Part shown: positions 2,587 through 58,505 of the stretch, piece by piece | Position numbering within the stretch: position 1 is the first letter of the stretch | How the letters are laid out: each line of letters opens with the position of its first letter | Sequence record: MK327941.1 | Length of the DNA: 64,000 bases | Reading direction: 5' to 3' (one strand) | Source of the DNA: Escherichia phage vB_EcoM_G37-3 | Translations under genes and position numbers: made by a program | The notes under the pieces: generated by a model | Seen by the model: the letters and a program-made list of their open reading frames with translations, nothing else | Told to the model about the DNA's origin: nothing | Databases searched by the model: none

Positions 2587-2782
2587 TTTGATTCTCCTTT
2601 GTTACTAGATAACGAATTTGGTCTTGCATTGCGATCAGTTCCCAGCGTGCTACTTTCATCATGGAAACCGACTCTTTGAACATAATATTAGCTTTTTCCT
2701 TATTCCCTGTCAAGTAGATTTCTGCAATTTTTTCACAAAATTTTTGAGTTTCTTCATTCTTAAACGGTTTCATATAAGTCAA
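2579..2782 (-). CDS. hypothetical protein (67 aa)
   Basis: ATG at 2782 behind AAAGGTTGA RBS and its own early promoter. Confidence 0.5.
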   Translation of the reverse strand: MTYMKPFKNEETQKFCEKIAEIYLTGNKEKANIMFKESVSMMKVARWELIAMQDQIRYLVTKENQNA

Positions 2783-2802
2783 CCTTTTGTTTTCGATGGG
2801 GA

Positions 2803-2832
2803 CATTATGATATATCCCCGATCCAGTGTCAA
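2803..2832 (-). promoter_or_regulatory. sigma70-like early promoter (PeSL-type), TTGACA-N17-CATAAT
   Basis: -35 TTGACA and -10 CATAAT on minus strand; -10 flanked by inverted repeat GGGGA/TCCCC; coordinates approximate. Confidence 0.55.
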
Positions 2833-2839
2833 CAGATTT

Positions 2840-3139
2840 TTAATCTTTTTTCAATGCATCCATTACTCGCTCTGCGATCAGTTCTCGTAAGCACTGATAA
2901 CCATGATATTTGATGGCAATGTCACGCAGATCATTAACCAGTTCCCGTACTTCATGGTCTTTCAGATCGTCTCTGTATTTCGATTTAACCGTGTCTTTAG
3001 GTGGATTGTGGATAACCTGAAAACCTTGTTCTGCAATCAATGCGGCTTCGCGCTGGCGTTCATGCTGTACTGTATTTTTGATCAGGTCTGCTTCCATGAA
3101 CTTTGCCATACTCATCATCATGTTATTCTTTTTGCTCAT
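2840..3139 (-). CDS. hypothetical protein (99 aa)
   Basis: Internal ATG at 3139 behind GAGGA RBS; track start lacks an RBS. Confidence 0.5.
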   Translation of the reverse strand: MSKKNNMMMSMAKFMEADLIKNTVQHERQREAALIAEQGFQVIHNPPKDTVKSKYRDDLKDHEVRELVNDLRDIAIKYHGYQCLRELIAERVMDALKKD

Positions 3140-5586: not shown

Positions 5587-5685
5587 TATTAAACCTCTTC
5601 ATAACATAACCATAACTTACTGCAACCGCCACAAAGACGGCTGCAACAATCATATTAAAAATTGAGTGATTGTCAAGTATATGAC

Positions 5686-5859
5686 TCATGACACGCGCAC
5701 ATTTTTATCATAGTACCCGCCATTAATCCCGCGCGGGGCAGTTAATCCCTGTTTGCATTCTTTACCACATTCAGGGCATTCTGCCTTTTCACGTTCGGAA
5801 ATTTTGCGGATTTTCTGAAATTGACCGTGTTCTTCACAAGAATAATCATATAATGGCAT
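5686..5859 (-). CDS. FmdB-family zinc-ribbon protein (57 aa)
   Basis: MPLYDYSCEEHGQF...CPECG pattern; ATG at 5859 behind AAAGGGGA RBS, just after dexA stop. Confidence 0.5.
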   Translation of the reverse strand: MPLYDYSCEEHGQFQKIRKISEREKAECPECGKECKQGLTAPRGINGGYYDKNVRVS

Positions 5860-5860
5860 A

Positions 5861-6529
5861 TTATCCCCTTTGTTTCTTAACTGAATTTGGATCTGGATTT
5901 TCTGGCAAGTCTTCCAGACCCATAGCATAACGTTGTGCATAGATTAGCATAAGAATATCGCGAGCGCAATCATGAATTGCATCATGTGCGATAAAACCAT
6001 CTAGCGTACCCATTGGTAACGGACACTCACACATCCCGCGATGCATCAATGTACGCTCAATGGCGGTGCGAACATCTCGGATATTCCAGAATCGCACAGG
6101 TTCAAGGCTGAACGTCTCTCGTGTATTGTGTGCACGGCGGATCATATCAACTAGTAACGGAATATCAAACGCATTACCGCGTGACCACAATACGGATTTA
6201 ACCGGATCTACTCCTACGGCTTCACAGAATGCGTTAAAACGCGCTAAACCTTCTTTAGTTGATACTTCCGTACCATTTGTGATTAATTGCTTTCTCATGC
6301 CTTCTGAGGCGGTATTCTTCCACCATTCAACCACACCATGATCAAACACCCTTACACCTTTCTGAGAAGGAATATCAAATTTTACCAGAAAGGAATTGTC
6401 AACCAGTTCTTTAAATGTAGGTGGATTGTGCGGATCTTCTTTAAATCCGATTGCCGCCATATTGATAACCGCCCCATCAGGCGGATAACCTAAACTTTCA
6501 AAGTCAATCATTAAATCCACTGGAAGCAT
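5861..6529 (-). CDS. dexA: exonuclease A DexA (DEDD 3'-5' exonuclease)
   Basis: N-terminus MLPVDLMIDFESLGY matches T4 DexA; ATG at 6529 behind GGAGGA RBS; the first 24 codons of the track ORF are rejected as extension. Confidence 0.85.
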   Translation of the reverse strand: MLPVDLMIDFESLGYPPDGAVINMAAIGFKEDPHNPPTFKELVDNSFLVKFDIPSQKGVRVFDHGVVEWWKNTASEGMRKQLITNGTEVSTKEGLARFNAFCEAVGVDPVKSVLWSRGNAFDIPLLVDMIRRAHNTRETFSLEPVRFWNIRDVRTAIERTLMHRGMCECPLPMGTLDGFIAHDAIHDCARDILMLIYAQRYAMGLEDLPENPDPNSVKKQRG

Positions 6530-9652: not shown

Positions 9653-10156
9653 TTAAATTAAAGAAAATTTGTAAATCTCTATCAGATCGCCGTTACACGC
9701 GTAAACTTCCTCGATCTCATCAAGGATCATGGTCGTCCCTGTCTTGTATATGCACTCTCGCTCATCTGCCAACATAGCATACAAAGACAGTCGAGTAGTC
9801 GGATTGTCATACTCTTTAGACACCACTCTGTCAATAGCATGTTCGTAATAATTCATGCAAGGCTTGGTAGGTTTTATTGCAATAATCTTTCCTGTTGCAT
9901 AAACATCGGTTGCAAAGTCCTCTGCGGTTGATTGCAGTGGCGTAAAGCTCATAGGACGCTCTACAACGAAAGAATCACCTACAATTAAGGTATCCAGCTT
10001 ACGGCCTTCTCTTTTGCTCACACCGCGATACAAGGCTTCGTGATGCACTAACCGTTCAGTCTTTTCAATCAATCCATTAAGGATCGACATATCGATATTT
10101 TCTTTAGAGTTCATCACTTCATCAATGATGTTAAGTTCTTCTGGTGTAAATTGCAT
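9653..10156 (-). CDS. putative ADP-ribosyltransferase (ModA/ModB-like)
   Basis: R (LYRG), S-x-T (MSFT) and E-x-E (ADEREC) in the order of the R-S-EXE signature; lies at the T4 modA/modB position. Confidence 0.45.
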   Translation of the reverse strand: MQFTPEELNIIDEVMNSKENIDMSILNGLIEKTERLVHHEALYRGVSKREGRKLDTLIVGDSFVVERPMSFTPLQSTAEDFATDVYATGKIIAIKPTKPCMNYYEHAIDRVVSKEYDNPTTRLSLYAMLADERECIYKTGTTMILDEIEEVYACNGDLIEIYKFSLI

Positions 10157-10274: not shown

Positions 10275-11204
10275 ATGAACTATAAACGTATTTATGATAA
10301 CCTGATTGAACGTGCTAAGACTCGAACTATCGACGGATATACAGAAAAGCATCACATCATACCACGTTGTATGAATGGAAGCGATGATGATAGCAATCTA
10401 GTTAGACTCACCCCAGAGGAACATTACATTGCTCACCTTCTGTTAGTTAAGATTTATCCAGATAACAGTAAATTGGTTTATGCTGCAAATATGATGTGCG
10501 TTTCTTCTGATTCACATAATGGAGAAAGACAGTCAAATAAACGTCATGGTTGGTTGCGTAGAAAAATGGCAGAGGCACATAGTAAAAGAATCCGCGATAG
10601 AATGGAGAACGATCCTGAATATAGAGCTAAGGTTTCGGAATGGGCTAGAAAAATGGGTAAAGCTATGAAAGGAGTTAAACGAGGACCGGAATTTAGCAGA
10701 AAGTTGGCAGAAAGAAACAGAAATACCGTGATGAAAGAAGAAACTAAACGTAAAATCGGGGAAGCCAACAAAGGAAGGAAACGTACAGAAGAATATAAAA
10801 GAAAACATAGTGAGCGGTATAAGGGTGAAGGTAATCCGATGTATGGTAAACGAGGAAAGGACCATCCGGCATATGGTACTAAACCGTGGAACAACCAAAC
10901 ATCATTTGTTGAGCAGAAAGCATGGTGGCGTTTCGCTGGCATGTTCTATGACTGGTATCAGAGAGATATTGACCGTGGAACACATAAACGCCACGGCCAT
11001 AAGAGAATGTTAGACGAGTTAGGTTTTGTTGGTTGGCGAGAAAAAGAGCCAGCCGCAGCAAGACGGTCAATTGAGATGTTCGCTAAAGGCTGGAATCCTT
11101 ATGAAGACCAAGAATGGTTAGATTATGTTAATACCCGCTTTCCAAACGACGATAGTTTTCCGCGTTCTTCAACATATACAAGACAAACAGATCTTTCGCA
11201 GTAA
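10275..11204 (+). CDS. HNH homing endonuclease with NUMOD3-like repeats
   Basis: HNH motif EKHHIIPRCMNGSDDDSNLVRLTPEEHYIAH; repeats GNPMYGKRGKDHPAYG; GGAG RBS; only sizeable plus-strand gene in the region. Confidence 0.85.
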   Translation: MNYKRIYDNLIERAKTRTIDGYTEKHHIIPRCMNGSDDDSNLVRLTPEEHYIAHLLLVKIYPDNSKLVYAANMMCVSSDSHNGERQSNKRHGWLRRKMAEAHSKRIRDRMENDPEYRAKVSEWARKMGKAMKGVKRGPEFSRKLAERNRNTVMKEETKRKIGEANKGRKRTEEYKRKHSERYKGEGNPMYGKRGKDHPAYGTKPWNNQTSFVEQKAWWRFAGMFYDWYQRDIDRGTHKRHGHKRMLDELGFVGWREKEPAAARRSIEMFAKGWNPYEDQEWLDYVNTRFPNDDSFPRSSTYTRQTDLSQ

Positions 11205-11646
11205 GCCCCAACGCCAAGAATTTACACATAATGAAATGGAGTTGGTCGACGGCTTCTAGGTATGTTTCCAAACGATCCGCCTCTGATAAATCACTAAAGA
11301 GGCGGTTTCGTGCTTCCATATGATTGGCTTTCCAGTGTTTCCACACCGCGCTAGCGTCTTTCCCGTTAGACATACCACCCAACGCAGTATACAGTTCTCG
11401 TGTTTCATCGTCAAGCGCATTGTCATTAGCTCGAATAAAATCTAAAATCTCTCCACACGTTTTCAATTCGTCAATTTTTGCTACCCACGGACGGTCCTTA
11501 GACACCTGATCCTGCAACGCTTTTTGCATATTCATCATATGCTGGAACGGGTTATCGCCGTTGGCGATAATTTCTTTATATTTTTCTTCTGCAAAATTCA
11601 GAGTTTCCGCATTTACTAAGTGTGCACAAGAATTAAATTCTGACAT
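11128..11646 (-). CDS. 56: dCTP pyrophosphatase gp56 (MazG-like)
   Basis: 172 aa from ATG at 11646 (track start is GTG); size and N-terminus fit T4 gp56. Confidence 0.75.
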   Translation of the reverse strand: MSEFNSCAHLVNAETLNFAEEKYKEIIANGDNPFQHMMNMQKALQDQVSKDRPWVAKIDELKTCGEILDFIRANDNALDDETRELYTALGGMSNGKDASAVWKHWKANHMEARNRLFSDLSEADRLETYLEAVDQLHFIMCKFLALGLTAKDLFVLYMLKNAENYRRLESGY

Positions 11647-11660
11647 ATTCACCTCATTAA

Positions 11661-17441: not shown

Positions 17442-20109
17442 ACAGGTCAGTAAGCGATGCAACTTTTTCGTATTGCAGCTTTGCAGCCGTGGTAATGTTC
17501 TCCAGCGGTTTGACGAAAGTCTTATTAAACAACAAAGGCCAGTCTAACCACTTCAACACTTCTGATTCAATTTCTGGCGGAATACGAGTACCAGACAACC
17601 AACCAAAACAGATTTCTCCAAACGGATTTCGATCTTTAAGCGGTACAATCATAACCTTCTCGCCTTCACGAATCGGATCTAGTCCGAATTTTCTGGCATT
17701 ACGATTATAACACAATACACTCTTAACCGCATACGGACAACCCTTAATCGGATACCCGTTTGAATCGCTGTATTTCTGTAGGTTGTTTGCCGATGATACC
17801 GCAGCAACCTCAAGATAGTCAAGTTTTCGAAACTCTTGCTCAAAAATACCGTAGTATTCCTGCAATGACTCTTCCCCTTCCTGCAACATACGGCGAATAC
17901 ATTCTTTCAGTGATTTCTGACATGCTTTAGGGGTGGAGCTACGTTGCGTTTCCAAGCCCATGATTTTTAGCTTAGGTTCAGCAAAGCGCGTTCCTTCCAT
18001 ATCCCAAACATTAAGAGCATAACGCTTTTTGCCAGTCCAGAATCCACCGATACCCGCAGATTTCAACGGAGGACCAGCAATTGCCTCGCGGTCCATAAAC
18101 ATCAAGTGCTCGTAGTTGTTCATGTACTCGCATAACTCGCGATATCCCTTGTCGATAATAGGTTCCATTCGATGTTTACCGAAATTATCAAGGAAGTCAA
18201 CAAGTTTTTCGGTATCGTCGAAACGGTCTTCCCCGCCAACCTTATCAATAACATTGTTAACCAGCACATAAACGGAGTCAGTATCACAATAACGAACATA
18301 TGCAAAATCGGTTGTTCCGCAAAGATCGTTTAAGTATTCGTTAATCTTACGCTCAATCCACTGAATTGCAAGCTGACCGAACAGTGTGATCGCACTAGCG
18401 TTACGGAGATCATAAAAACGGAATTTAGGATTCCCCAACGCACCATAAAGGGAGTTGATCAAAACTTTTCGAGAAAGCTGGTTTGTATTGCACAAGATCG
18501 ACTCGTCTTTACATTCTTCCAGCAATTTCTCTAAGGCATCTTTACTTAATTCAGAAAGCATCGATTTAAACGCTTCATCAAAGTCGTGACGCACTTCAAC
18601 GCTATAGCTAATGGTTCCCCCATAAACATGATTTTCATCGTGTAGAATCGCTTTACAGAGTTCAGCATTGCGATCACATGCCAACATCATGTTTTTGTAC
18701 TGCTTACGCTGATCGAATACCTTTTTAATCTCAATCGGTACGATACCGTGAATATCTTTTCTATACATCCATCCGTTAGGCGAGCAAGAATACTCATCAC
18801 TCGGACGTGGTGCAGTTTTATTGATATACTCGTGCATCGGTGCAGCATCAAAAGATCCAGCGATTGTTTCAGGCGAAATATTAACCTGTCGAATAATAGA
18901 TGGGTACAGACTTGTTAAGTCAAAGCTCATCATCCAACGGTAAGCATTCGGCACAGGTTCTTTTACGAATGCGCCTGGATACGTCTGCTTAGGCTGTATC
19001 TTATTTTCCGGTACTACTTTACCCTCAGCTTTCAGAGATCCGAAGATAATAGCATCCCATACTTTCATTGGGTTATAAACATGGTTAAATTTAATCTTTG
19101 CATAGAAACATAGGCTATACACCAGATCAATAAAACCACGCTTTTTATCAATCGCCAGCACACGGTCAACGTCGCCGATGTTATAATCTATGTAAAGTTG
19201 ATGGTTGTCATCACGCAATTTCTTTAACGGACCATCATAATCAACCTTACCGATTCCGGTCTCATATTCAGCAACATAATCTAACGCATATGTTGGTTGA
19301 GTCGTAAAGCTAAATTTCTTGTACAGGTCAATATAATCAAGGCTTTCGATCCCCATGATCGTAAATGCTTCACGCTCGTTGCCAAAATCATCCTGTGAGA
19401 TTCGGGATTTAATCTTACCGCACGGGCTTAGACGGTTAGCGGTTCTACTTCCGAACTTATTACTGATACGTTTAATGATATACGGTATATCGAATGTTTC
19501 TGTGTTCCAGCCAGTGAAACCAACGGGTCGGTTTTCCTCAAAGAATCGGATGTATTCTAACAGCAATTCATCTTCTGTGTCGTAGACGTTATAAACAACG
19601 CGCTCTACAATATCAGGTCGAAGAATAGACTTGCTAGATTCCCAGATTTCACCGTTTTTTCCTTTCAAATCAAATACAAAGAAACGATCATGTACGGAAT
19701 CATAATGCGTAATTGCATCGATAGGATATTTCGCTTCTTCTGGTTTAGGAAATTCTGGGGCAGTGACCTCGATATCAACCCATGCTACACGGATTTTATT
19801 TCGGTCATATCGAATCTCGCCTTTATACGTATCAGACAGATAGGAGATGATAAAATCATCCATCCCTAGCGCCTCTTGCCCCATTTCTCCCATCTTTTTA
19901 CGCCATTTGTTGGCCTCGTTCATAGATGGGAATTTTTTAGCAATGCAAGGCTTGCCATAGATATCTTTATAATTCGTAACCATACCAGGCGCGGCATGAT
20001 GAAATAATGTTGGCGTATATTCAACGTAACGCTCTTGTTCTTGTCCAGCATCATCAATATAACGCTCGTAGATCTTATCACCTACTCGCTCACATGACAG
20101 AAAATACAT
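17431..20109 (-). CDS. 43: DNA polymerase gp43 (family B)
   Basis: About 892 aa from ATG at 20109 behind GAAGGAG RBS (track start is GTG); exonuclease and polymerase motifs match T4 gp43 along the whole length. Confidence 0.95.
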   Translation of the reverse strand: MYFLSCERVGDKIYERYIDDAGQEQERYVEYTPTLFHHAAPGMVTNYKDIYGKPCIAKKFPSMNEANKWRKKMGEMGQEALGMDDFIISYLSDTYKGEIRYDRNKIRVAWVDIEVTAPEFPKPEEAKYPIDAITHYDSVHDRFFVFDLKGKNGEIWESSKSILRPDIVERVVYNVYDTEDELLLEYIRFFEENRPVGFTGWNTETFDIPYIIKRISNKFGSRTANRLSPCGKIKSRISQDDFGNEREAFTIMGIESLDYIDLYKKFSFTTQPTYALDYVAEYETGIGKVDYDGPLKKLRDDNHQLYIDYNIGDVDRVLAIDKKRGFIDLVYSLCFYAKIKFNHVYNPMKVWDAIIFGSLKAEGKVVPENKIQPKQTYPGAFVKEPVPNAYRWMMSFDLTSLYPSIIRQVNISPETIAGSFDAAPMHEYINKTAPRPSDEYSCSPNGWMYRKDIHGIVPIEIKKVFDQRKQYKNMMLACDRNAELCKAILHDENHVYGGTISYSVEVRHDFDEAFKSMLSELSKDALEKLLEECKDESILCNTNQLSRKVLINSLYGALGNPKFRFYDLRNASAITLFGQLAIQWIERKINEYLNDLCGTTDFAYVRYCDTDSVYVLVNNVIDKVGGEDRFDDTEKLVDFLDNFGKHRMEPIIDKGYRELCEYMNNYEHLMFMDREAIAGPPLKSAGIGGFWTGKKRYALNVWDMEGTRFAEPKLKIMGLETQRSSTPKACQKSLKECIRRMLQEGEESLQEYYGIFEQEFRKLDYLEVAAVSSANNLQKYSDSNGYPIKGCPYAVKSVLCYNRNARKFGLDPIREGEKVMIVPLKDRNPFGEICFGWLSGTRIPPEIESEVLKWLDWPLLFNKTFVKPLENITTAAKLQYEKVASLTDLFDI

Positions 20110-30950: not shown

Positions 30951-31109
30951 TTACTTAATGATACTTACTTTACCAGATCCGTGACAATGAGCGCAACACC
31001 CATCACCACGCAATCCTGTTCCGTTACAATGTTTACACTTCTTCAACGGTAAAGCCATTATAGCAAATAAAGCAATAATGAATACCGAAACTAAATTCTC
31101 AATAATCAT
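30951..31109 (-). CDS. small membrane-anchored zinc-ribbon peptide (52 aa)
   Basis: Below track cutoff; N-terminal hydrophobic helix then CKHCNGTG...CCAHCHGSG; start overlaps 3' end of nrdH. Confidence 0.35.
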   Translation of the reverse strand: MIIENLVSVFIIALFAIMALPLKKCKHCNGTGLRGDGCCAHCHGSGKVSIIK

Positions 31110-31368
31110 AAATCGCCCTCAGTTCTTTATAGCCTCCAATGTGCTCGTTGTCAATGAATATCTGGGGGTATACAAACCGGAGGCTCTTTGAGTTCAGCCT
31201 CCCAGCCAGTTCTTCAATCATATCACGGTCGGGAATAATGTCAACCCCGACCTGCTTGAATACTGGTTTAAGTGTATACGGAATACCCAGGTCATCCAGT
31301 AGCTTCATTGCACTAATACAACCATAACAATGATAAGCCTCTTTCGGTATGCCGTATATCTCGATCAT
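31099..31368 (-). CDS. nrdH: glutaredoxin-like protein NrdH
   Basis: 89 aa; redox motif CYGC near N-terminus; next to nrdG/nrdD. Confidence 0.7.
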   Translation of the reverse strand: MIEIYGIPKEAYHCYGCISAMKLLDDLGIPYTLKPVFKQVGVDIIPDRDMIEELAGRLNSKSLRFVYPQIFIDNEHIGGYKELRAIYDY

Positions 31369-31841
31369 TTCTCAGCCTTTAATCTTTCTAGTTCTTCTTC
31401 CAGTTCCTTGATCCGTTGGTCACGTTCAAAGTCACGCTGTAGCTTAGTGGCAAATACTCGCTTAAACTGATTGTAATCATCGATTTTAAACACTTCTTCT
31501 TCGCCATAGCGACGCACAGAAACTTCGTAGTTATTGAAGAATTGTTGCATCATTGCTTCGGATGATAGTTCTGCTGATACTACTTTAAAATATTGATCTT
31601 CGGTAGGTGAAAACCAATTGCAAGCATAAAGATAAACCTTTTCATTGTCTGGACACTGGTAAGCCTTACCATCGATTTCAATCACAGAAACATATTCAGG
31701 TATACTAGATGAATCAATAGCTAAGACTTTAAACGCACGGTCCCCGATAAACTCGGAGATCACACGATTCGCATCACTGGTTGCAAATGCTTTACGCGCT
31801 TGTTCGTTTTTCCACTGATAGGTCATACCAACAACAAACAT
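31365..31841 (-). CDS. paralog-family protein P1 (one beta-domain plus C-terminal helix)
   Basis: GMTYQWKNEQARKAF...AFKVLAIDS...IEIDGKAY...QYFKVV; ATG at 31841 behind GAGGT RBS. Confidence 0.55.
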   Translation of the reverse strand: MFVVGMTYQWKNEQARKAFATSDANRVISEFIGDRAFKVLAIDSSSIPEYVSVIEIDGKAYQCPDNEKVYLYACNWFSPTEDQYFKVVSAELSSEAMMQQFFNNYEVSVRRYGEEEVFKIDDYNQFKRVFATKLQRDFERDQRIKELEEELERLKAEK

Positions 31842-31842
31842 A

Positions 31843-32667
31843 TTACCAACCTCGCTCTTTACCAATCAAAAATTCAACTTCACGACGTTTAATGTCTTCT
31901 TGAAGGTCTTTAATCTTCTGGCGATCTTGCATGATTTCATCCATCTTGTCAAGTGCCGCAATGAAATCATCGAAACGTTCAAAGGTTTTACCTTCATTTG
32001 CTTCGCCAAATTTAACCATTGTCAGGCCGTAACGACTACTAAACAGACGTTTCAACTGTCCAACGATTTTAGAATCAGTGGTTATAATTTCCAATTCTTC
32101 TACTTCACGAAAGAATTTTCTATCAGAATCAATAAACCAGCTAGTTCCTTTATGGTCTCTATCTTCGGTTGCGCTCATTAGAGTATGGTCTTTACCATCA
32201 ATTTCAATTACATCAATTTGCCCACATGGACTAACATTTTTAACAGTAAAAGGTCTATAATTTATTGCTCGTGCAATAACATAATTAAGGTTAGATACGT
32301 TTTCAGCATAATGGCAGAAGTCGGTCATAGCATTCGCATCTTTCCAAGTATAAGTTTTACCAACTTCCCATTTCTGGGGAACTTCTTCAACTTCACGAAA
32401 GAATTTTCTATCGAATGGACTAAAGAAATATGTTGCAGTCCAAATGTCTTTTCCTGTAGCAGTTTTCGCCGTATGATAAACACCGTCTAGCTCTATTGCA
32501 TTAATCCAACCGTTACCCTCGATCTCGATGATGGTAAATGGCTTGTCACCAATAGCTGCACTAATATCGCTGTTAAGTGGAGAAAGAACACCTTCTCCGT
32601 TAGTAATAAACTCAGTTTTAGCGTTTTCATCTTTCCAGGTGTAAGTTTTACCAATTTCCCATTTCAT
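31843..32667 (-). CDS. paralog-family protein P2 (two tandem domains)
   Basis: Two copies of W-E-[IV]-GKTYTWKD...PFT[IV]...IEIDGK...DRKFFREVEE. Confidence 0.6.
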   Translation of the reverse strand: MKWEIGKTYTWKDENAKTEFITNGEGVLSPLNSDISAAIGDKPFTIIEIEGNGWINAIELDGVYHTAKTATGKDIWTATYFFSPFDRKFFREVEEVPQKWEVGKTYTWKDANAMTDFCHYAENVSNLNYVIARAINYRPFTVKNVSPCGQIDVIEIDGKDHTLMSATEDRDHKGTSWFIDSDRKFFREVEELEIITTDSKIVGQLKRLFSSRYGLTMVKFGEANEGKTFERFDDFIAALDKMDEIMQDRQKIKDLQEDIKRREVEFLIGKERGW

Positions 32668-32679
32668 AATATATTCCCC

Positions 32680-33165
32680 TTAACCGATTTTATCAAGTTC
32701 GTTTAATGCTTTCTCTGCTTCCTGTATAGCTTGCACTCTTTCCGGCATTTTGTCAAGAAAATCTTTCAACTCTTCAAAACTGGAGATATGACGCAAGGCA
32801 TTAGCACCGATAGCCGCATGTGATTTGCATTCAAAGCGGATTTTATAATTATCCATAGCCAATTTGAGAAGGTCTATTAGATCATATTCATGACCAGGCA
32901 ATAAAACTTCTTTGAAGCACGCTCGGTCGCCATCGGAAAACCATATATTATCACCAACATCGATAGAACTAATATAATCCCCTTCGTGATTATAGATTGA
33001 ACGTACATTACCCCAACGGTCTACCGTAGCGACAGTAAATGGTTTATCTAGATATGTAAACACACCATCAATATTAGGTTTTTGTTCGTAACGCCAACAA
33101 TCACGCAAAATGCGCTTTTCGTCCTCACCAACCAACTTATATGTCTTCCCTTCTTCCCATTTCAT
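32680..33165 (-). CDS. paralog-family protein P3
   Basis: MKWEEGKTYK...PFTVATVD...; C-terminal LKDFLDKMPERV helix; ATG at 33165. Confidence 0.55.
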   Translation of the reverse strand: MKWEEGKTYKLVGEDEKRILRDCWRYEQKPNIDGVFTYLDKPFTVATVDRWGNVRSIYNHEGDYISSIDVGDNIWFSDGDRACFKEVLLPGHEYDLIDLLKLAMDNYKIRFECKSHAAIGANALRHISSFEELKDFLDKMPERVQAIQEAEKALNELDKIG

Positions 33166-33169
33166 AATA

Positions 33170-33695
33170 TCATCTCTCATTTTTGATACGTGATTCTAAT
33201 TGGATCATACGGTCGCGCGTTTGCTTGTATTCTCGAATAGCACCGATCCGGCTAGGCATACCATCAAGCACGCTCTTAATCCCTTCTATGGTAGTGATTT
33301 TAGCAATGCTATTATGTAACCCCATCTTATCGATCAACTGAATGTCGTAGGCTTCCATAAGCAGACCCAGACGTTCTAAAGTTAGGTCTTCTTTTTTCTT
33401 CCGATTCTGGAATCTTAGGTTCAATAGTAACTTCGGTAAAGAAACGGCGCTCACCTGACCAAAACCACACACCGGAACAACCAATAGGGGATTCTTTTAG
33501 CGTCATAGAGTCGTAACCACTGCCGATAATAGTAATTTCTCTAACATCACCATCATCGTCAATGTCTTCTACCATAAAAGGGCGACCAGCCAACAAGTCA
33601 ACAATACATCTGTTAATAGACGACGAAAATTTAGTCAGTTCGGCTTTCGACGCTTCGCATTCAATCTTGTAAGTTTTACCAACTTCCCATTCCAT
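33170..33695 (-). pseudogene. paralog-family member P4 interrupted by a frameshift
   Basis: N-terminal domain in frame of 33327..33704, C-terminal helix (GMPSRIGAI) in frame of 33170..33484; frames meet at an A6 run near 33392..33397. Confidence 0.45.
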
Positions 33696-33705
33696 AATAA
33701 TCACC

Positions 33706-34209
33706 TCAAATAATTTTCACTGGAATACTATTAACAATCTTGTATTGTACTTGATTGTCAGACCCCCGCCACGGCTTCTTCGTTGGCATATCTTTAATAT
33801 AACGACCATCGATGAACATGTCAACTGATTCTACAATTTTTCTTTGCTCATCATTCAATTGGTCAAGGGTATAACCGGACCATAGCCAAATATCTTTATT
33901 TGGCATCCATGATTTTACTTCATCGATGATCCGCTGTACACCCTTTAAATTGCGTTTATACAGTGGATCGCCACCTAAGAATGTTAGCCCCTGAATAAAA
34001 TCAGGTCTAAGCAGATCCAGAATCAATCCCATTGTATCATCGGTGAATGGTTCCCCGTTCTTAGGATTGAGTATGCTAGCATTAAAGCAACCATCACATG
34101 CGTGTGAACATCCGGTAACGTAAAGGGAGACTCTCACTCCCTCACCGTTAACCATATCACAATCTTTAATATCGGCATAGCGTAGTTTGCCGTATGTATC
34201 AGAACTCAT
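33706..34209 (-). CDS. nrdG: anaerobic ribonucleotide reductase activating protein NrdG (radical SAM)
   Basis: CSHACDGC cluster, GGDPL motif; aligns with T4 NrdG; ATG at 34209. Confidence 0.85.
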   Translation of the reverse strand: MSSDTYGKLRYADIKDCDMVNGEGVRVSLYVTGCSHACDGCFNASILNPKNGEPFTDDTMGLILDLLRPDFIQGLTFLGGDPLYKRNLKGVQRIIDEVKSWMPNKDIWLWSGYTLDQLNDEQRKIVESVDMFIDGRYIKDMPTKKPWRGSDNQVQYKIVNSIPVKII

Positions 34210-34351
34210 ATTCAATTACCCCGAACTCGTTTACAATCTGCGCTTTATAGTAACCACCGCGAGATGCCAATAGATAAGCTGGGCTTAGGTATTCGTATTC
34301 ACGGATTTCTACTTGTGCGTTTTCAGTTTCCCAAATCAGTAAAGTCCACAT
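34199..34351 (-). CDS. small protein (50 aa)
   Basis: Below track cutoff; AGGAGAATCAAAT leader after an early promoter; stop overlaps nrdG start. Confidence 0.35.
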   Translation of the reverse strand: MWTLLIWETENAQVEIREYEYLSPAYLLASRGGYYKAQIVNEFGVIEYEF

Positions 34352-44045: not shown

Positions 44046-44087
44046 TTTGATTCTCCTTAAGAAAGTGTGTTTCGTTTTGATGTGTGT

Positions 44088-57104: not shown

Positions 57105-57302
57105 CTAAAATTTGTTAACGACGAATTGCATAATTAGACTAATCACAAACATTGCAAACCAAGTATAAATGCAACAGATAAAAGCTACATACAATTCAAT
57201 CTGGTCAGAGAATACACCGGGTAAAAGCATTAGCAAAATAACAACAGTAAAGACGCTAGCGATACCCGCAACAAAACCAATATCATTTTTACTAATCGTC
57301 AT
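57105..57302 (-). CDS. small membrane protein (65 aa)
   Basis: GGTGA RBS before ATG at 57302; two hydrophobic segments. Confidence 0.45.
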   Translation of the reverse strand: MTISKNDIGFVAGIASVFTVVILLMLLPGVFSDQIELYVAFICCIYTWFAMFVISLIMQFVVNKF

Positions 57303-57502
57303 CAAGTCACCGTTTTGTAAAGAAACACAATAAAATCCAAGACAAGAAAGACAGTGTAAATGATCATCGTCAAGACAGTAAACACTGTCAAATTTTCATC
57401 GTTAGTTAATTCATAGTCGCCCATCCATACAATCACAAGATATAGCATTGAAAGAATGGAAGCACCTACGAAGTTAAAAAAAACATATTCTTGAGCGTCA
57501 TA

Positions 57503-58288: not shown

Positions 58289-58310
58289 AGTATCACCTCA
58301 ACACTTAACG

Positions 58311-58505
58311 TTATTCAAACTCAAACGGTCTATTCAACCTATTGTAAAAGTACATATAACAAGCAAAATTATGCTTTGGCTGTACCGTATCAGATAGACA
58401 CGCTTTTACAGCCTCGCGGTCCGATGGGTCTACACCCTCAGCTTTAAGTAATGCTAAAATCTGGTTATAGCGTACTCTTAGTTGTACTAATGGTTTATCC
58501 CCCAT
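58311..58505 (-). CDS. hypothetical protein (64 aa)
   Basis: ORF on the common strand. Confidence 0.4.
   Translation of the reverse strand: MGDKPLVQLRVRYNQILALLKAEGVDPSDREAVKACLSDTVQPKHNFACYMYFYNRLNRPFEFE

Follow-up and report, generated by a model that had tools for sequence, protein, structure and literature searches.

A frameshift at a run of six adenines splits one of four tandem paralogues between nrdG and nrdH in the Krischvirus vB_EcoM_G37-3

Main finding

On the minus strand of the genome of Escherichia phage vB_EcoM_G37-3, the gene located just downstream of nrdG is broken at a run of six adenines at positions 33392..33397 of the window, the term being used here for the whole stretch of 64,000 nucleotides that was analysed. 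Sequence comparisons with related phages suggest that the break is probably (at roughly 60%) a real, recent and non-programmed frameshift mutation in this one phage lineage. The lesion is of an ordinary kind, namely a lineage-specific frameshift, or possibly an assembly slip, in an accessory paralogue.

Two reading frames encode the parts of one protein

The minus-strand letters around the A6 run (33397..33392) are ...CCAGAATCGGAAGAAAAAAGAAGACCTAAC..., and two open reading frames meet at this junction. The zero-frame ORF (33327..33695, minus strand) specifies 122 aa when translation starts at the ATG codon at 33695, which is preceded by the Shine-Dalgarno sequence GAGGTGA, and 125 aa when it starts at the alternative GTG codon at 33704. 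Up to the lesion the deduced protein reads MEWEVGKTY...TIEPKIPESEEK, after which the codons AAA AGA AGA CCT... follow; the complete zero-frame product consists of MEWEVGKTY...IPESEEK and the subsequent sequence RRPNFRTSGSAYGSLRHSVDR and ends at a premature TAA stop codon (33327-33329) that falls 160 nt before the next gene. This ORF includes a complete N-terminal domain, the start of the linker and 22 out-of-frame residues. The +1 frame is open from position 33484 to the TGA stop codon at 33170-33172 and reads ...KKEDLTLERLGLLMEAYDIQL...QLESRIKNER, with the part from the A run onwards encoding EDLTLERLGLLMEAYDIQLIDKMGLHNSIAKITTIEGIKSVLDGMPSRIGAIREYKQTRDRMIQLESRIKNER. The segment specifying the C-terminal helical domain (EDLTLERLG...RIKNER; 33170..33391, minus strand) is now located in this +1 frame. 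The initial annotation, which had placed the N-terminal domain and the conserved C-terminal helix in two frames meeting at the A6 run, was accordingly correct in its coordinates as well as in its letters.

Removal of one A in silico joined the two frames and yielded a protein of 174 aa. Residues 1-170 of the rejoined protein matched the profile of phrog_5347 at positions 1-165 of 165 (E 6.6e-66), and over 100% of its length the protein shared 97% identity with intact proteins of 174-175 aa deduced from public assemblies. Homology that continues across the frame change at 97% identity is far beyond chance. In the C-terminal segment no start codon is accompanied by a ribosome-binding site, and separate expression of the C-terminal half was rejected, as the two in-frame ATG codons (within LLMEAY and DKMGL) are without an upstream Shine-Dalgarno sequence.

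The disrupted gene is part of a tandem array

The upstream and co-directional neighbour of the disrupted gene is nrdG (33706..34215, minus strand), which encodes the activase of the anaerobic ribonucleotide reductase and anchors the synteny with related phages. The interval from nrdG to nrdH represents a tandem array of four paralogues, with five N-domains in all. Paralogue 2 (32680..33165, minus strand) is intact, encodes 161 aa from the ATG at 33165 and matches phrog_5347 with E 3.2e-59; every one of its homologue clusters is full length. Paralogue 3 (31843..32667, minus strand) is likewise intact and specifies a protein of 274 aa, in which two N-domains are combined with a single C-terminal domain and which matches phrog_5347 in two stretches (E 5.1e-92) and additionally the 'goF mRNA metabolism modulator' profiles phrog_2980 (E 5e-10) and phrog_13003 (E 2e-9). 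The array is completed by the intact paralogue 4 (31365..31841, minus strand), which encodes 158 aa from the ATG at 31841, matches phrog_5347 with E 1.4e-60 and sits just upstream of nrdH (31099..31368). With three downstream genes matching the same PHROG as the disrupted gene (phrog_5347, E 3e-59 to 5e-92), the earlier assignment of this gene to a family of paralogues was borne out.

The frameshifted gene is the orthologue of ORF051 of phage Phi1 (phi1p051) and of G5211_00053. Its PHROG matches are confined to the families 5347, 622, 5804 and 3710, all of which are of unknown function, and searches of Pfam and NCBIfam yielded no match. A Foldseek search of the PDB with an AlphaFold model returned no significant hit, the best E value being 0.18 and the structures found being SH3-like barrels (Mib repeat, FeoA, Tudor). 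Homologues detectable at the BLAST level were restricted to Krischvirus. With regard to the GoF (comC-alpha) protein of phage T4, paralogues 3 and 4 match the GoF-labelled profiles phrog_2980, phrog_13003 and phrog_8944 through their N-domains, with E values of 1e-6 to 5e-10, whereas the frameshifted gene itself has no match to a GoF profile at E below 0.01 and is tied to GoF only via the shared phrog_5347. The match to the GoF-labelled phrog_2980 covers residues of the N-domain only, and the conserved C-terminal domain did not align.

Alleles at the site in related phages

The phage is a Krischvirus, that is, an RB49-like T4-type coliphage, and is 98.9% identical to vB_EcoM_G5211 over 20 kb, with the window starting at the same genome coordinate as G5211; many other relatives are 96-97% identical over 20 kb. 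The orthologue is a single intact ORF of 528 nt in both G5211 (G5211_00053) and Phi1 (phi1p051) and an ORF of 522 nt in W115, which differs only in the last residues, and all three carry GAAGAAAAAGAAGAAGAC or a near variant of it within the one intact frame. The relatives read GAA TCG GAA GAA AAA GAA GAA GAC CTA at the site, and the corresponding part of the window reads GAATCGGAAGAAAAAAGAAGACCTA and is 2 nt shorter. The same letters as in the relatives are present in ECD7, in which the frame is intact at the site and broken further downstream.

The comparison with related phage genomes that had been proposed in the initial annotation was carried out with a 121-nt query centred on the site, and 52 phage records were found to align across it. 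One open frame is kept in all 52 spanning records, and the A6 run is present in none of them. Relative to the window, the aligned span is 2 nt longer in 50 of the 52 records (allele GAAGAAAAAGAAGAAGAC), 1 nt shorter in phiS and 20 nt longer in JK32. The phiS allele GAAGAAAAAGAAGAC represents an in-frame loss of one GAA and is 3 nt shorter than the common allele, and the linker of JK32 is in frame and 18 nt longer than the common allele. At the position of the A6 run, the relatives contain A5, with GAAGAAGAC next to it in the long allele and GAAGAC in the short allele of phiS. The exact allele of the window was absent from IMG/VR and the JGI metagenomes in exact-match scans, the truncated product was absent from the protein collection in its 122-aa and 125-aa forms in an exact look-up, and no near-identical sibling genome was found by which the event could be dated.

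As judged from the aligned letters, the split and the A6 run are a derived state that is private to this genome. This state could have originated either through the loss of GA from GAAGAAAAAGAAGAAGAC or through an additional A in the A5 run of a short allele like that of phiS. Since phiS does not share the flanking SNPs of the window, the route via the short allele and an added A needs an extra, independent GAA contraction.

The lesion lies in a variable interdomain linker

An AlphaFold2 model was built for the close orthologue P0002 from an alignment of 38 sequences. The model comprises an N-domain at residues 1-92 (pLDDT about 90), a disordered linker at residues 93-103 (pLDDT below 50) and a mostly helical C-terminal domain at residues 104-174 (pLDDT 60-80), in which residues 136-173 form a long helix. 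According to this prediction, the lesion falls within the disordered acidic linker between the two folded domains. The linker is encoded by the purine-rich, low-complexity tract GAATCGGAAGAAAAAAGAAGAC (33386..33407, minus strand), which is an indel hotspot among the orthologues. The linker ranges in length from 0 to 15 residues among the orthologues (36 in the alignment), and its forms include none (KAPDL), ESEEKEDL, ESEEKEEDL and ESEEDKEQDL, up to EPEEKEEDKEQEPDL. All 36 aligned orthologue clusters are full length (162-182 aa); their C-terminal domain is nearly invariant, the N-domain varies, and in some of the orthologues an N-domain of quite another kind precedes this C-terminal domain.

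Four further records (FL04, LF73P4, KMB43 and UPWr_E1) align with the query only from the A run or from just after it and contain a different N-domain. Their N-domain is P0035-like (67% identity overall), the acidic linker is missing, and the C-terminal domain is near-identical. FL04 (PP358550, 1240-1728), the one record that was fetched among these four, contains an intact ORF of 162 aa. Since the DNA similarity of the records with a swapped N-domain starts at or just after the A run, the linker constitutes a domain-swap junction. The variable linker and the exchanged N-domains together mark the purine-rich linker tract as a natural hotspot of indels and recombination.

Independent breaks of the same gene

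The orthologous gene is also disrupted in other assemblies, by other and independent changes. The genome of ECD7 (KY683735) carries a 1-nt deletion at about 3025-3030 (GAAGGG to GAAGG, that is, GGG to GG); as a result the final 38 residues, with the long C-terminal helix among them, are exchanged for others, and the CDS (2606-3097) is annotated as a hypothetical protein of 163 aa. A Logan contig of SRR24962600 (1278-1803) shows a contraction of a GT repeat by 2 nt (GGTGTGTGG to GGTGTGG) that leaves ORFs of 80 aa and 100 aa; the two-N-domain paralogue on this contig is only 177 aa long. The sequence P0040 reads as a +2 expansion of the same GT repeat, and P0041 and P0042 read as changes from C4 to C3 on two different sequence backgrounds. 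The sequence P0043, encoded on a contig of Logan SRR11185258 (L010, 2501-3438), is a chimera of 154 aa that combines the N-terminus of the gene with the C-terminus of the 274-aa paralogue; the array of this contig has collapsed, presumably through unequal recombination between paralogues. Where the last paralogue would be expected, the contig has two overlapping ORFs (64 and 105 aa) that possibly reflect a further frameshift.

A cluster search yielded 37 full-length and 5 fragment clusters for the frameshifted gene, and 6 clusters with 189 members, all of them full length, for the adjacent paralogue, which had been sampled to a similar extent. The higher number of fragments is suggestive but statistically modest, and assembly noise as well as the limits of the word-index search could have contributed to it. 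In view of the different and independent frameshifts in other assemblies, the gene looks dispensable and often broken.

Indels and other differences between the window and G5211

An indel census of the window versus G5211 covered an alignment of 61.4 kb, 93.4% of it coding and 6.6% intergenic. The census comprised 11 indel events with a net length that is not a multiple of three: six are intergenic, three are located within 12 nt of a gene start or stop, and two fall into gene bodies, namely the lesion described here and a change from T6 to T8 at 57476-57483. Random errors would not be expected to avoid gene bodies in this way, whereas real mutations filtered by selection would leave just such a distribution. 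On the basis of this census the notion of an assembly riddled with errors was rejected, and the selection-shaped pattern favours a real mutation over an assembly error. Downstream of the shift, the gene shows three differences from G5211, two of which are synonymous and one of which is an exchange of L to I that is already polymorphic in the relatives. With the C-terminal segment free of further lesions, the event is either recent or an artefact. The word decaying in the initial annotation overstates the condition of a gene whose C-terminal segment is without further lesions.

The second gene-body event is located at a run of A8 on the plus strand, corresponding to T8 on the coding minus strand (57476-57483) and to T6 in G5211; no other A/T run in the window is as long. 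The event affects the orthologue of G5211_00112 and phi1p111, a small hydrophobic protein of 69 aa (MVVNMTLKNMFFNFVG...), of which T8 leaves an ORF of 48 aa (57302..57448) that starts at an internal Met. According to the alignment span lengths, most deposited Krischvirus genomes contain T6 at this position, T7 is found in PTE-Eco09 and ELT4, and T5 in 011D4, W115, FL20, JK32, TB34, GoldenSnicker, SAP and LF73P4. The run may be either a real hypervariable tract or the site of a recurrent sequencing error.

Larger differences from G5211 were observed as well. An ORF of 309 aa with an HNH motif (10275..11204, plus strand) is absent from G5211 and is located on the opposite strand between a modB-like gene (9653..10156) and the gene for the gp56 dCTPase (11128..11652); by its sequence it looks like a free-standing homing endonuclease. 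The window is devoid of the G5211 segments 5591-6338, which contains a putative endonuclease gene, and 18567-19687, which contains an intron-like ORF splitting the DNA polymerase gene gp43. Additionally, the window contains an intergenic insertion of 15 nt at 44066 and a net insertion of 19 nt at 58310-58346, near the 3' end of the G5211_00116 orthologue.

Mutation or assembly error

A sequencing or assembly artefact, in which the true allele would be in frame (either the long allele or the phiS-like GAAGAAAAAGAAGAC) and bases would have been miscounted in the A/G tract, is a less probable but by no means negligible explanation of the split, and one that the initial annotation had offered in the form of a sequencing error in a homopolymer. 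Set against the phiS-type allele, the window contains one additional A in the A5 run, as a homopolymer overcall would look; set against the flank-matched alleles of the G5211/ECD7 type, however, the change amounts to 2 nt and is unlike the usual plus-or-minus-1 miscall of a homopolymer, and the deviating flanking SNPs of phiS burden the overcall with the additional independent GAA contraction. The only other gene-body frameshift is also located at a homopolymer, the T8 run at 57476-57483 that varies from T5 to T8 among deposited genomes, although 61 kb of sequence align with G5211 without a scatter of homopolymer errors in coding regions. The allele is seen nowhere else and no extra lesions have accumulated downstream of it, both of which would fit an artefact, but the independent and different frameshifts of the gene in other assemblies make a real breakage plausible.

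If the split is the real mutation that we favour, the A6 run would have been generated by replication slippage in the purine-rich (GAA/AAA) linker tract, with 2 bp (GA) lost from the ancestral GAAGAAAAAGAAGAAGAC. Ribosomes would then synthesize the product of 122 aa, composed of an intact N-terminal domain and 22 junk residues, and the conserved C-terminal helical domain would not be made, save in rare accidental +1 events. In such events a ribosome paused at the tandem rare Arg codons AGA_AGA might let its tRNA-Lys move from one AAA to the AAA overlapping it; alternatively, loss of one A by the RNA polymerase would have the same effect. The mutation would be tolerated because the gene is one of four tandem paralogues in a genus-specific accessory family.

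A mutation of this kind would place the gene beside the ordinary frameshift-inactivated accessory genes of T4-like phages, with which it shares an intact orthologue in close relatives, a small derived indel at a simple repeat and the nature of a non-core, genus-restricted, multi-copy ORF among nrd genes in the variable early region. Unlike those pseudogenes, it shows no secondary decay yet, and its truncated product is predicted to keep a complete folded N-domain, so that it may be a shortened protein and not a dead gene.

Programmed recoding and accidental bypass

The initial annotation had also considered a programmed ribosomal or transcriptional slip, and this proposal is effectively refuted, since the split is not conserved: all 52 spanning records are in a single frame and the A6 run is private to the window. 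A programmed +1 ribosomal frameshift or transcriptional slippage, selected to yield two products from one gene, is accordingly very improbable. What speaks for it are the local letters, that is, a slippery AAA A with rare Arg codons behind it, and two long ORFs that overlap. The zero-frame AAA codon (33394-33392) overlaps an AAA codon of the +1 frame and allows re-pairing in the P site, the next zero-frame codons being AGA_AGA, and the shift-prone motif AAA_AGA_AGA was made by the mutation itself. The intact orthologues all encode a single protein of 162-182 aa, and stimulators of recoding were missing on both sides of the site: downstream, the folding of the adjoining 92 nt was not significant (z-score -1.2; 31 of 200 shuffled sequences folded as well), and inspection by eye of about 15 nt upstream revealed no AGGAGG-like sequence that could serve as a Shine-Dalgarno-like stimulator. 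Bacterial transcriptional slippage typically takes place at A/T homopolymers of 8-9 nt or more, and the run at the site is an A6 unique to the window instead of a long conserved run. Its length is also below that usually needed for slippage (PMC5009743). Known programmed sites, such as the +1 site of prfB, the A_AAA_AAG -1 site of dnaX and slippage sites at long A/T runs, likewise comprise two overlapping ORFs that meet at an A-rich motif; the site described here differs from them by its lack of conservation, by the lack of a Shine-Dalgarno-like or structural stimulator and by the shortness of its run (6 A). A -1 frameshift as at A_AAA_AAG was likewise rejected, as the shift needed is +1 (or -2), which is the wrong direction when compared with dnaX, and an AGA codon in the A site cannot re-pair in the -1 frame.

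It is unlikely, too, that a real indel is partly reversed in expression, with about 1-10% of the ribosomes shifting by +1 at AAA_AGA_AGA or the RNA polymerase dropping one A, so that mostly an N-domain-only protein and a little full-length protein would be made, or that simple-repeat tracts serve as on/off switches in the manner of contingency loci. The P-site AAA can re-pair perfectly with the overlapping +1 AAA ahead of the tandem AGA_AGA, a sequence reported to be shift-prone in E. coli with an efficiency depending on the mRNA or expression level (PMC5009743); no stop codon interrupts the +1 frame within the overlap, and no tRNA genes were found in the window. The AGA codon is, however, not especially rare, accounting for 5.3 per 1000 codons in the long ORFs of the window; the A6 run is short for slippage of RNA polymerase, and neither conservation nor a stimulatory element (upstream Shine-Dalgarno-like sequence; downstream fold, z -1.2) supports a bypass. 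Switching, for its part, would fit the independent frameshift alleles at short repeats of the gene ((GT)n, C4 and G3), none of which occur in the adjacent paralogue, but the excess of fragments is small (7 of about 223 member sequences versus 0 of 189 for the neighbour) and could be assembly noise. Runs of A6/T6 are otherwise about 3.4-fold depleted in the window, with 45 observed versus 155 expected (155 plus or minus 16 for runs of six or more, from dinucleotide-preserving shuffles). This depletion suggests a general avoidance of slippery homopolymers in the genome.

Accidental +1 frameshifting is known from tandem rare Arg codons of E. coli (AGG_AGG or AGA_AGA), where it has been described as adventitious and dependent on the expression level (PMC5009743). 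The site described here resembles this system in its AAA_AGA_AGA motif, from which a +1 shift enters the correct C-terminal frame, and differs from it in that the phage uses AGA fairly often and that the site bears no sign of selection. From its letters, the AAA_AGA_AGA context could permit at most a low, accidental output of full-length protein (...EEK-EDL... or ...EEKR-DL...). A comparable situation is the G run of the herpesvirus thymidine kinase gene, a 'savior indel plus low-level compensatory frameshifting' for which a selective advantage and residual product were demonstrated (PMC5009743). As in that case, an indel in a homopolymer would remove most of the expression, and traces of full-length protein made by slippage could persist here.

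Implications for annotation and for the biology of the family

In the annotation, a single frameshift-disrupted gene, the orthologue of phi1p051 and a member of phrog_5347, should take the place of the two ORFs 33327..33695 and 33170..33484, which are neither two genes nor a recoding site. The case also cautions against over-calling programmed frameshifts wherever an A run joins two ORFs, a question that is settled here by about 50 relatives.

Among the proteins encoded in the array, the N-domain of the frameshifted gene is the most diversified, with 37 clusters at 90% identity versus 6 for the neighbouring paralogue, and it is swapped wholesale at the linker. A diversified and swapped N-domain along with repeated breaks is consistent with conflict between the phage protein and a host factor, which could for instance be a defence system sensing the protein. 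That the gene is a hot spot of adaptive on/off variation, with recurrent, independent frame breaks in different Krischvirus isolates at its short repeats ((GT)3, C4, G3 and the GAA/A-run linker), is a doubtful proposition, and a role of these repeats as recurrent switches under host conflict is weakly suggested by the data. If it were true, loss or truncation of the protein would be selected, and the AAA_AGA_AGA motif would leave a trickle of full-length protein.

The genes between nrdG and nrdH represent a genus-specific tandem family with a hypervariable linker, swappable N-domains and a near-invariant C-terminal domain, one member of which is repeatedly broken. Accordingly, the array has the appearance of a dispensable and fast-evolving accessory module, which may be of interest to studies of phage-host conflict.
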